This document shows positions 34,356 to 35,681 of a stretch of 57,625 bases of DNA, in pieces. The notes under the pieces were generated by a model, which was not told the origin of the DNA, searched no databases, and saw only the letters and a list, made by a program, of their open reading frames with translations. Position 1 is the stretch's first letter. Every line of letters starts with the position of its first letter. Source of the stretch: a virus (taxonomy: Duplodnaviria; Caudoviricetes); the IMG/VR virus record IMGVR_UViG_3300036770_005327, positions 1 through 57,625 of that record, one strand, 5' to 3'. A program made the position numbers and the translations under genes.

Positions 34356-34679
34356 CTAACCACTAACGATGCGGCGCAGCAGACGCCGCATTCCTGAGAA
34401 CATCGGCTGGTAATGGTCATCAAACGACTGCTCCAGCAAAACTATTTGACAGTCAAGATAATCAATATCAGCCTGCATTTCAGCAGAAACACCAGCGATG
34501 ATACTAGCTGCAGGTATGCTTTTTATAATACTGGCGAACTGTTCTGTTGTCGGTTCAGCCGGATGGTCTGACGACAGAATATTTTTTAAATCCGGTAGTA
34601 AAATCCCCGACCGGTTGGCGATCACGGCTAAGTCGCAGTGGCCTGTTAGTAAAGTCTCGATTAATATGCCCTTCAACAT
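34356..34679 (-). CDS. HTH-like (XRE-like) protein
   Basis: LAVIANRSGILLPDLKNILS....PTTEQFASI. Confidence 0.5.
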   Translation of the reverse strand: MLKGILIETLLTGHCDLAVIANRSGILLPDLKNILSSDHPAEPTTEQFASIIKSIPAASIIAGVSAEMQADIDYLDCQIVLLEQSFDDHYQPMFSGMRRLLRRIVSG

Positions 34680-34700
34680 CCCAATTTTATCCTTCTGGCA

Positions 34701-35306
34701 TCATACTTTTAGCAAAAACCGATTTTTACAGCCGGCAATAATTAAAGCTAAGAGCAACAACAATTCCAACGATAAGCCTACACAATGAACAGCCAAAGCT
34801 AAATCCCACAATGCTAGCCGATAAATACCAAGCATTTCATAGACTGCGCCAGCTTCGAAAGCGCCAGCGTAGAACATAAAATAGTGGCAAACAACAAGAC
34901 TATGCGAAACAACAAACGCATAGCAAACCCGGCGTATAGCCAATTCAGCCATGTAAAATTTAACCGGGTATACCGCAGGAAGCACAACTTCCACTAAAGG
35001 CCCGAACACAGGTATTCGGGCAAATACCCCACCAATTTTTAGGCTAACTATCGGCCTGAAAATAATGAGGCTTCTTATTAAGAAAACGTGAATTACTATC
35101 TGAACTACATGGAATGTAACACCAGGCATTTCGAAGATAGGCATAACAATTAAAACCATAAATTTAGCAAAAGACGTATACGCCCCTAAAATAAAGAGGG
35201 TCCAGCGAACATTAGCGTCTTTGCATACAACAAAGCTCAAAAACAAAAAGGGCCAATAAATCCAATCAAACACTGACCCTATTAAATCCCGATATTCTTC
35301 TAACAT
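34701..35306 (-). CDS. Multi-pass membrane protein of unknown function (about 5-6 TM)
   Basis: 201 aa with several hydrophobic segments; AAGGA RBS. Confidence 0.75.
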   Translation of the reverse strand: MLEEYRDLIGSVFDWIYWPFLFLSFVVCKDANVRWTLFILGAYTSFAKFMVLIVMPIFEMPGVTFHVVQIVIHVFLIRSLIIFRPIVSLKIGGVFARIPVFGPLVEVVLPAVYPVKFYMAELAIRRVCYAFVVSHSLVVCHYFMFYAGAFEAGAVYEMLGIYRLALWDLALAVHCVGLSLELLLLLALIIAGCKNRFLLKV

Positions 35307-35337
35307 CAGTAATTCCTTTACTGCAATGTGGAACTAC

Positions 35338-35544
35338 TTACGGTCTTCCTGGAGGTGAAGGCCAGTCTCCCGGATTGTCTGTCATAGCTTCAGACATTGC
35401 CCGAGCTTGGGGACTAATACTAACAGTATCCGCGCCTGTTGTGGGTACTGCTGTTGCTGTTTCGTCTTTTTTTTCTGCTGGCTTAACAGAAGCAATAGCA
35501 GTGCTATTGACCGCTGCTGAAACGACTTTATCTGAAACGTTCAT
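35338..35544 (-). CDS. Small disordered protein with an FlgM-like DTVSISPQARAM motif and a Pro-rich C-terminal peptide
   Basis: 68 aa, strong RBS (AAGGAGAGAGAGG), first gene of a three-gene operon. Confidence 0.7.
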   Translation of the reverse strand: MNVSDKVVSAAVNSTAIASVKPAEKKDETATAVPTTGADTVSISPQARAMSEAMTDNPGDWPSPPGRP

Positions 35545-35681
35545 CCTCTCTCTCCTTGGTACGCTTATAAAATCAGATTATTTTACATAAAAAACCTGAT
35601 GTAATTTTGATAAAAACCATTCTCAACAAGAAATGGCGCGCAACCGAATGTTTTTTAAACTAAAAAGTTAAGTTTATTCAA

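Follow-up and report, generated by a model that had tools for sequence, protein, structure and literature searches.

A conserved three-gene accessory operon of a phage-plasmid lineage, tentatively read as a small-protein switch at the inner membrane

What might a phage-plasmid do with a compact operon that sets a disordered small protein, a multi-pass membrane protein and a helix-turn-helix-type protein side by side in its lysogeny and maintenance region? The question is raised by the virus record IMGVR_UViG_3300036770_005327 (Duplodnaviria; Caudoviricetes), a complete record of 57,625 bp with direct terminal repeats present, which was analysed over its whole length and is referred to here as the window. 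A sequence-only reading of this DNA had pointed to a minus-strand trio of genes for 68, 201 and 107 amino acids (aa) between par and the resolvase, and the open reading frames (ORFs) do lie there:

35338..35544, minus strand: sp68, the first gene of the operon, an ORF for a 68-aa small protein predicted to be intrinsically disordered
34701..35306, minus strand: TM201, an ORF for a 201-aa predicted five-helix inner-membrane protein of an orphan family
34356..34679, minus strand: p107, an ORF for a 107-aa protein whose N-terminal domain is of a putative XRE-like helix-turn-helix type, with two helices at the C-terminus

Judged on its sequence, the module is a self-contained, conserved and mobile accessory operon of a phage-plasmid lineage, built from undescribed protein families. 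As to what it does, the explanation that we favour, and that only tentatively, is a membrane-anchored regulatory switch in which the small protein would act at the cytoplasmic face of the inner membrane.

A Shine-Dalgarno-like AGGAG/AAGGA stretch stands before each of the three genes, and the intergenic gaps are short, at 31 nt between sp68 and TM201 and 21 nt between TM201 and p107. Five phage-type loci were readable, namely the window itself and the following four:

L002: IMG/VR contig, 57,353 bp
L003: metagenome contig, 57,420 bp
L004: 5.3-kb fragment
L005: Pseudoalteromonas sp. ASV78 contig, 56,986 bp

All five have the same gene order, from the small gene through the membrane gene to a gene for 106-112 aa, and in all five the operon and the resolvase gene diverge, while the operon and parB-parA converge; homologues of the three genes thus do co-occur, as the sequence-only reading required. 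Given that the trio is kept in every readable phage-type locus, and given ratios of non-synonymous to synonymous divergence (dN/dS) of 0.22 for sp68, 0.14 for TM201 and 0.10 for p107 in the comparison with L003, we consider all three to be real genes under purifying selection as proteins. The portal and capsid proteins of L005 are 44% identical to those of the window and are encoded on the contig that carries the cassette, which identifies that contig as a related phage-plasmid in a cultured, flagellated host; together with the presence of ParAB this upholds the earlier proposal of a Gram-negative phage-plasmid. L005 has the resolvase-cassette-parBA layout of the window and, in addition, encodes a giant protein (>1648 aa).

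A word-based search among 5.8 billion cluster representatives found 6 for TM201, 6 for sp68 and 16 for p107, the window's own counted, and an exhaustive search of 1.84 billion representatives with the TM201 profile returned 17 proteins at E<=0.001. Matches of the TM201 and p107 families lie on contigs of equal length (56201, 57353, 14355, 7295 and 19372); beyond the five readable loci, co-occurrence is read solely from these equal lengths of the matched contigs. Scanning IMG/VR with the TM201, p107 and resolvase profiles returned a single related contig, and queries there with the resolvase as a single protein or with P0020 returned none. No match was obtained by megablast or tblastn among PLSDB plasmids and INPHARED phages, and we found no homologue of the module in isolated phages or PLSDB plasmids. 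Pfam holds no significant match for sp68, TM201 or p107, and neither PHROG nor PADLOC (PADLOC-DB 2.0, E<=1) has a family for any of them. The literature on FlgM in phages and prophages and on Pseudoalteromonas phage-plasmids, searched at title and abstract level and not extending to the supplementary lists of Silpe et al., gave no account of such a module. Since neither these searches nor the family libraries gave a match, we call the module undescribed; by its profile matches it belongs to none of the FlgM, arbitrium, Agr, XRE or PADLOC families.

The small protein is predicted to be intrinsically disordered, and its own predicted local distance difference test score (pLDDT) was below 50 in at least one run of complex prediction. 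That prediction, made with three chains and without controls, gave sp68 as a partner scores of 0.17 and 0.15 against a mark of 0.32, which weigh neither for nor against binding. In none of the seven family members does the mean hydropathy over ten residues exceed 1.5 anywhere within the first 40 aa, in keeping with the earlier statement that sp68 has no Sec signal; we accordingly treat it as a protein without a Sec-type leader, and by reading of its sequence it has no double-glycine leader either. Its best Pfam match (E 0.092) is to unrelated families. The seven members share an N-terminus of the form M-[NDQ]-[VI]-x-[ND], followed by a variable S/T/A-rich stretch, a segment [TK]-V-[STN]-[IL]-S and a tail G-[DN]-[WV]-P-x-P-P, in which P62, P64 and P65 are invariant (7/7 sequences). 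Two strings singled out in the sequence-only reading are both present in sp68:

35395..35430, minus strand: FlgM-like short motif DTVSISPQARAM, sp68 residues 39-50
35341..35382, minus strand: Pro-rich tail TDNPGDWPSPPGRP, sp68 residues 55-68, which holds G-[DN]-[WV]-P-x-P-P

The small protein of L005 carries a Pro-rich unit, SSGTGNVPDPP, twice, flanking a V-x-L-S segment on both sides. A Pro-rich pattern, [GS][DN][WVFIL]P.P[PE], was defined on the phage loci before it was applied to loci found later; over 1140 + 181 ORFs it matched only small ORFs just upstream of a membrane gene, and its one match among the 181 ORFs of the ten later loci is the ORF upstream of the TM201 homologue in locus L037.

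How far does the likeness of sp68 to FlgM go? Searched at E<=10, neither the whole window nor any of the seven sp68 family members matched the Pfam family PF04316 (FlgM). The NCBIfam model TIGR03824 (FlgM) scored 14.4 bits against sp68 (E 0.048; cut-off 40.75), with residues 6-53 aligned co-linearly to profile positions 9-55 of 98, and across 18,950 NCBIfam models FlgM was the sole family matched by more than one sp68 member (3/7, best E 0.0053). A further profile was built from 25 FlgM proteins at the level of the family Alteromonadaceae, where 26 of 31 genomes had one; 29 places were found, and only the 25 assigned to loci were used. With this profile sp68 reached 15.9 bits, and for the two nearest relatives of sp68 the values were 16.7 and 10.8 bits; these scores were attained by 0, 0 and 1 of 1500 composition-preserving shuffles, respectively. 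The score comes mostly from D-T-V-S-I-S-P-Q-A, aligned to D-S-V-S-[LI]-T-P-Q-A at a matching distance from the start of the protein; in the Pseudoalteromonas genome with the related element, which is not the host of the window, FlgM has ADSVSLTPQAQQL as compared with ADTVSISPQARAM in sp68. Family against family, hhalign gave P 0.0011 and a probability of 20.9% over 26 columns. Among the nearest named ESM Atlas clusters of sp68 are one with FlgM in 23% of its members (0.85) and a flagellar-dependent secreted family (0.83), where the threshold for a lead is 0.9. The small proteins of L005 and of the more distant loci L037 and L038 are without FlgM signal.

Like FlgM, sp68 is small and seems to have an S/T/A/N-rich disordered N-terminal part of about 40 residues without a Sec leader, followed at an equal distance from the start by D-[ST]-V-[ST]-[IL]-[ST]-x-Q-A. 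Unlike FlgM, it scores far under the cut-off, and its gene lies on a phage-plasmid beside a membrane protein, not among flagellar genes. The FlgM-like motif of the sequence-only reading therefore stands as what appears to be a real resemblance to the N-terminal half of FlgM, but one that is short, partial and sub-threshold, and seen in three of the seven members; it may reflect descent, mimicry or coincidence. That reading was right that the C-terminal, sigma-28-binding part of FlgM is missing: the TIGR03824 match stops at position 55, profile positions 56-98 have no counterpart, and a 15-residue Pro-rich tail takes the place of the sigma-28-binding helices. Flagellar substrates are described as recognised mainly via a disordered N-terminal signal, sigma-28 as the secretion chaperone of FlgM, and cargo fused C-terminally to FlgM as secreted (PMC3372961). 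On this account export of sp68 via the flagellum is conceivable, but sp68 lacks the chaperone site.

For TM201, the AlphaFold2 model obtained with a 20-sequence alignment (pLDDT 89.2, predicted TM-score 0.81) and a hydropathy profile with five membrane segments agree with the earlier description of a multi-pass membrane protein. Alignment A6 was drawn from 17 matches, from which P0016 and P0019 (fragments) and P0026 (742 aa, seven short stretches) were left out. The protein is rich in K/R in the loop 27-35, in the segment 79-120 and at the C-terminus, and these three regions are predicted to be cytoplasmic by the positive-inside rule. All of the conserved motifs, KDANVRW (29-35), RP (84-85), LPxxY (109-113) and E121, fall in predicted cytoplasmic regions; the columns that never vary in the 20-sequence alignment are R34, P110 and E121, and no Cys, His or Ser is invariant. 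Conservation peaks in the predicted cytoplasmic loop 28-36, in which 9/9 positions match among three alleles that are about 62% identical, and which has a mean pairwise identity of 0.71 versus 0.23-0.46 in the other segments. Least conserved are the predicted periplasmic loop 55-64 and helix 2, the periplasmic loops being short; when only the three close alleles are compared, helix 1 varies most. With the conserved motifs in predicted cytoplasmic loops and the periplasmic loops short and variable, a periplasmic peptide receptor is disfavoured, and the distribution of conservation argues against TM201 being a receptor for an external peptide.

TM201 matched no known fold in the PDB or BFVD at E<=0.001, in the Atlas it reached no more than a score of 0.81 by feature and a TM-score of 0.49 by structure, and Pfam returned no family at E<=1, AgrB and CPBP/Abi included. 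An identity as a CPBP/Abi-type intramembrane protease, considered for the string 'AELAIRR', was rejected, there being no Pfam match, no conserved His motifs and no Rce1-type fold match.

The third protein, p107, was called HTH-like (helix-turn-helix-like) in the sequence-only reading. Its AlphaFold2 model (pLDDT 77) has an N-terminal domain of about 53 residues for which the top Foldseek matches are XRE-family regulators (53 columns, root-mean-square deviation 1.7-2.8, E 0.4-3.3, probability up to 0.94-0.97), among them phage 186 regulators, HigA, C.Esp1396I, DdrO, SinR and Aca1. Over the helix-turn-helix, hhalign of the p107 family against a canonical XRE protein gave P 0.0026, and the orthologue in L005 showed sub-threshold matches to HTH_31 (0.014), HTH_3 (0.053) and MarR (0.0012); the p107 set comprised 16 matches, of which P0048, a 76-aa fragment, was left out. 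The earlier HTH-like description is thus supported by fold only, the N-terminus appearing XRE-like, and the E-values are weak. C-terminal to this domain are two further helices that end in a near-invariant P-M-F-x-G-M-R-R, where x is S or G; the last helix is basic, and the C-terminal extension is more conserved than the helix-turn-helix itself. NCBIfam had no match of any kind to p107 at E<=1, NF038310 (lysogeny_AimR) included, and the model is without a tetratricopeptide repeat (TPR) region.

How could these three proteins act together? In the switch that we tentatively favour, the Pro-rich motif of sp68 would dock the small protein onto the conserved cytoplasmic loops of TM201, and its FlgM-like segment would engage a helix-turn-helix partner, most simply p107, in the way that FlgM holds sigma-28; the matching segment of FlgM contacts the helix-turn-helix domain of the sigma factor. 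So placed, sp68 might bridge TM201 and p107 or compete between them, and p107 would provide the transcriptional output on lysogeny or maintenance genes of the phage-plasmid. We favour this switch because sp68 is leaderless, disordered and endowed with two motifs, because the conservation of TM201 faces the predicted cytoplasm, because the helix-turn-helix partner has a conserved extra helix, and because the operon is par-adjacent.

Plasmid-like phages have been described to carry par-adjacent (or repA-telN) induction modules made of a transcription factor and a small ORF (TF-smORF modules), the small protein inactivating the cI-type repressor of the phage and thereby setting off lysis (Silpe et al., bioRxiv 10.1101/2022.09.16.508337). 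As in those modules, so far as described there, the carrier is a plasmid-like phage, the location is beside partition genes, an XRE-type protein is paired with a small protein of 50-70 aa, and the families are without sequence similarity from phage to phage; the cassette abuts a ParB-like gene and combines an XRE-like fold with a small ORF. It differs from the modules of that account in being one co-oriented operon with a membrane protein in between, and in having no LuxR or other ligand-binding factor. In logic and in site the module would resemble these par-adjacent pairs of transcription factor and small protein, with a membrane component added. Plasmid-like phages are known to carry small-protein modules that time the killing of the host, and with every module described so far a new input signal has come to light; to these the operon would add a membrane-anchored version, made up of three protein families not described before, in which sp68 would copy part of a flagellar checkpoint regulator. 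With a Pseudoalteromonas isolate as its natural carrier, the module is testable in a cultured host.

Several observations weigh against the switch. The topology of TM201 comes from hydropathy and charge alone, p107 has no Pfam helix-turn-helix match (HTH_3, HTH_31) at E<=1, and four of the seven sp68 family members do not rise above shuffles for FlgM. The interactions proposed among sp68, TM201 and p107 are inferred, in part by analogy with FlgM and its sigma factor. In the documented TF-smORF modules the small ORF has the opposite orientation, and the abstract and section 8 of that account mention no membrane protein. In genome G014, locus L034 is a lone chromosomal TM201 homologue without partners, and L037 has no helix-turn-helix gene within its 1.5-kb flanks; a three-part switch explains neither. 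Nor did hhalign find a relationship between the sp68 family and the small ORFs of L037 and L038 (P 0.64 and 0.32), and the likeness of these chromosomal small ORFs to sp68 appears to reside in short motifs.

More distant relatives show what else can accompany the TM201 family. A TM201-like gene was found in 4/401 genomes at the level of the Pseudoalteromonas family and in 3/401 at the level of the order, the Pseudoalteromonas genome being counted in both. The homologue in L037 is preceded by a 116-aa disordered ORF in which DRVSLG is directly followed by SNVPSPE. L038, L035 and L036 encode weaker TM201 homologues (E 2.5e-5 to 5.9e-5) that keep the loop motif N-[VI]-R-[WHY], and these lie just downstream of canonical XRE genes (HTH_3 at 5.9e-11, 1.5e-8 and 2.4e-7). 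In L035 a small ORF (2142-2618, minus strand) lies between the XRE gene and the weak TM201-like gene; it contains three DLKxV[TS]GG repeats, each followed by SG(I/T)xxG..P, and with matches to ComC (E 0.0058) and EntF induction factor (E 0.031) it looks like a precursor of a multi-core peptide with double-glycine leaders. A small disordered ORF and a helix-turn-helix gene thus tend to accompany the TM201 family, though not always. Genome G014 has two chromosomal, non-phage copies of the family and no portal or capsid match; by ORF reading, L034 lies beside a GGDEF-EAL-like gene and L037 beside a PhoB-like regulator.

The cassette also stands out in its divergence. Over 35568-39767 (about 4.2 kb, with the resolvase, a cI-like XRE gene and four further genes) the window is 98-100% identical to L003; identity is 89% in the 5' part of sp68 and 71% at its tail, falls to 58-60% at 34968-35267, which is the N-terminal half of TM201, and is back to 77-87% in p107 and parB. 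We read the boundary between the window and L003 as a sharp recombination mosaic. On both flanks of 35568-39767 identity to L003 drops to 58-90%, and one breakpoint is inside or next to the small gene. Synonymous divergence (dS) from L003 is 1.90 for TM201, 0.88 for p107, 0.53 for sp68, 0.26-0.44 for par and int, and 0.006 for the resolvase. As the cassette is the most diverged stretch between otherwise near-identical phages, the pattern points to old, divergent alleles that were exchanged among close phages. Metagenome contigs from three runs differ from the window at 0-5 positions per 180-431 nt in the TM201 region, and contigs of two of those runs (X3 and X4) differ at 32-46 of 316-426 positions over 36925-37350; this gives a weak hint of cassette exchange, for which mixed strains are an alternative. 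The element at L045 (genome G371, contig 20) has the same resolvase family with different cargo adjoining, which by ORF reading comprises a small membrane protein, a lipoprotein, a helix-turn-helix plus toxin-like pair and a restriction-specificity-like gene; this difference in cargo suggests that the site beside this resolvase family is a variable accessory locus.

The main rival to the switch, which we regard as possible though doubtful, is a lysogen-expressed module for exclusion, defence or competition, in which TM201 and its small partner would block incoming phage or plasmid DNA or abort infection and the helix-turn-helix protein would regulate the operon only. The contrast between 58-60% and 98-100% identity, and between a dS of 1.90 and the 0.006-0.53 of its neighbours, is a mosaic typical of competition genes, and the patchy, rare distribution, the L034 homologue, which resembles an orphan immunity or exclusion gene, the toxin-like and restriction-like cargo read at L045 and the place of the cassette in the lysogeny and maintenance region all agree with it; no PADLOC model was matched, however, and the C-terminal extension of p107, the conservation of a helix-turn-helix partner and the FlgM-like motif are left unexplained. 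P22 SieA and T4 Imm are examples of prophage inner-membrane superinfection-exclusion proteins, with which TM201 would share an inner-membrane location, a place in the lysogeny region of a temperate phage and a mosaic distribution; it differs in having no sequence or fold likeness in PHROGs, PADLOC, BFVD or the PDB (no search by name was made) and, in phages, in always being encoded with two soluble partners. An exclusion system of this kind would define a new family. Plasmid addiction, with TM201 as membrane toxin, sp68 as labile antitoxin and p107 as regulator of post-segregational killing, is the least probable of the readings that we considered. Disordered small proteins are typical as labile antitoxins, three-part regulator/antitoxin/toxin operons exist on plasmids, and in this plasmid-like prophage the cassette does have partition genes on one side and a resolution gene on the other; against this, no likeness to toxin-antitoxin families was found for the cassette proteins in Pfam, NCBIfam or PADLOC, a five-helix toxin of 201 aa would be unusual, and the lone homologue in L034 has no partner.

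The remaining readings turn on peptides and export. Along the lines of the sequence-only reading, the flagellar type III system of the host would export sp68 via its FlgM-like half; a secreted Pro-rich peptide would be sensed, or else the loss of sp68 from the cytoplasm would report flagellar assembly, with p107 as the output. We consider this model unlikely. Its strength is the co-linear likeness to FlgM that shuffles almost never reach, including the correspondence of ADSVSLTPQAQQL and ADTVSISPQARAM, alongside the two sub-threshold Atlas clusters, the export of disordered N-terminal signals and FlgM fusions in the source cited above, and, for the peptide, the repeated Pro-rich units of L005 and the leader-like repeats of L035. 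The FlgM scores are nevertheless all below cut-offs, the signal is missing from most members of the family and from the small proteins of L005, L037 and L038, and the chaperone site is gone; external sensing fits poorly with a conserved face of TM201 that is predicted to be cytoplasmic, and no peptide-uptake or TPR-receptor component is present. Of an arbitrium system in particular no component is present: the AimR-AimP-AimX system of Bacillus phages likewise has a phage-borne small protein and a DNA-binding protein near lysogeny genes, but sp68 is no Sec-exported AimP, p107 is no TPR-type AimR, the host is Gram-negative, and a membrane protein is part of the operon. Rather speculative, and to our minds a long shot, is a scheme in which the phage-plasmid would read the flagellar export state of its host by the FlgM principle: sp68, an N-terminal mimic of FlgM held at the cytoplasmic face of TM201, would restrain the helix-turn-helix protein until completion of the hook-basal body led to sp68 being pumped out, the regulator released and, possibly, a Pro-rich peptide passed to neighbours. 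Were flagellar export sensed or a peptide sent in this manner, motility and the life-cycle choice of a phage would be linked for the first time in Gram-negative bacteria, and reading of the flagellar state would tie decisions on lysogeny, maintenance or exclusion to motility. An arrangement like AgrB/AgrD or a microcin with its immunity protein, in which TM201 would modify, export or protect against a precursor encoded by sp68, seems improbable. Here too a small gene lies immediately upstream of a polytopic membrane protein of about 200 aa in every phage-type locus, hypervariability is shared by the sp68 tail and the N-terminal half of TM201, as it is locally by the members of AgrB-AgrD or class II bacteriocin pairs, core-like units recur in L005 and L035, and the lone copy in L034 could be an orphan immunity gene. 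The pair has no AgrB or CPBP/Abi match, though, and no invariant residue that could be a catalytic Cys or His, nor an invariant Ser; leader-like repeats are confined to the distant, weak relative L035 and sp68 itself has no such leader; the ORF lists of the five phage-type loci show no gene for a dedicated exporter next to the cassette; and sp68 is hydrophilic and disordered, as pore-forming class II peptides are not.

The surroundings of the cassette place it in the lysogeny and maintenance region, between parAB and the resolvase:

33298-34053: ParA (AAA_31, 3.5e-44)
34050-34352: ParB-sized gene, adjoining the cassette
35784-36488: serine resolvase (4.4e-18)
36591-37016: cI-like XRE repressor-like gene, 141 aa

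The window also encodes a tyrosine recombinase, and its virion genes include a terminase, portal (7.8e-158), major head protein (6.2e-106), internal virion protein and tail fibres. With ParA, the ParB-sized gene, resolvase, tyrosine recombinase and XRE gene in addition to these virion genes, we take the window to be a temperate, plasmid-like podovirus, that is, a phage-plasmid; its terminase is only 31-35% identical to those of the nearest isolated phages. The C-terminal part of the XRE protein at 36591-37016 (..GTIVVNKKSPVQVQLVLTSNPEAMVDEC) resembles a separate 78-aa ORF of L005 at 11967-12203 (..GTLTINGKTAQIKLTVTQDPDKFIDED), and in L002 and L004 this domain is fused to the helix-turn-helix.

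Four non-coding sites lie in or next to the operon:

35572-35600: imperfect palindrome, candidate operator, 11 arm positions pair (by reading)
35572..35605, minus strand: promoter-like site ATTACA-17-AATAAT, sigma-70-like, candidate operon promoter, overlapping the imperfect palindrome
34349..34366, minus strand: terminator-like hairpin, 7-bp stem, T-rich tail, overlapping the p107 stop codon
35682-35717, no strand assigned: 17+17-nt palindrome GTAGTTGCGTTT..AAACGCAACTAC in the divergent intergenic region, 88% complementary, single occurrence

The imperfect palindrome is exactly where the sequence-only reading had put it, upstream of the operon, although a repeat search with seed 6 did not report it. 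Conservation of the promoter and palindrome site at 35572..35605 is limited to the near-identical L003 and is not clear for L002 or L004. Promoter-like sites are no commoner than in shuffles (4 found versus 3.5 expected), and the excess of terminator-like sites is weak (4 versus 2.0 expected). No sigma-28-type promoter was seen by eye upstream of sp68, where no search with a tool was made. Unlike the palindrome at 35572-35600, the one at 35682-35717 has a TTAAAGTACACTCTAAA-like core that aligns in all five loci, and a third copy of AGTTGCGT is found at 35776-35783, abutting the resolvase start codon; this palindrome probably belongs to the resolvase, as a res site or operator, and not to the cassette.

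Among public sequencing runs on record, no RNA run contains the stretch, wastewater runs labelled 'RNA-Seq' having been flagged as probably DNA. With the possible source run set aside, two wastewater runs from two studies contain 83% and 68% of the sampled words of 34356-35610. Since these two runs hold most of the words of the stretch, the habitat of the phage seems to be of a wastewater or freshwater type, unlike the marine setting of its Pseudoalteromonas relative.

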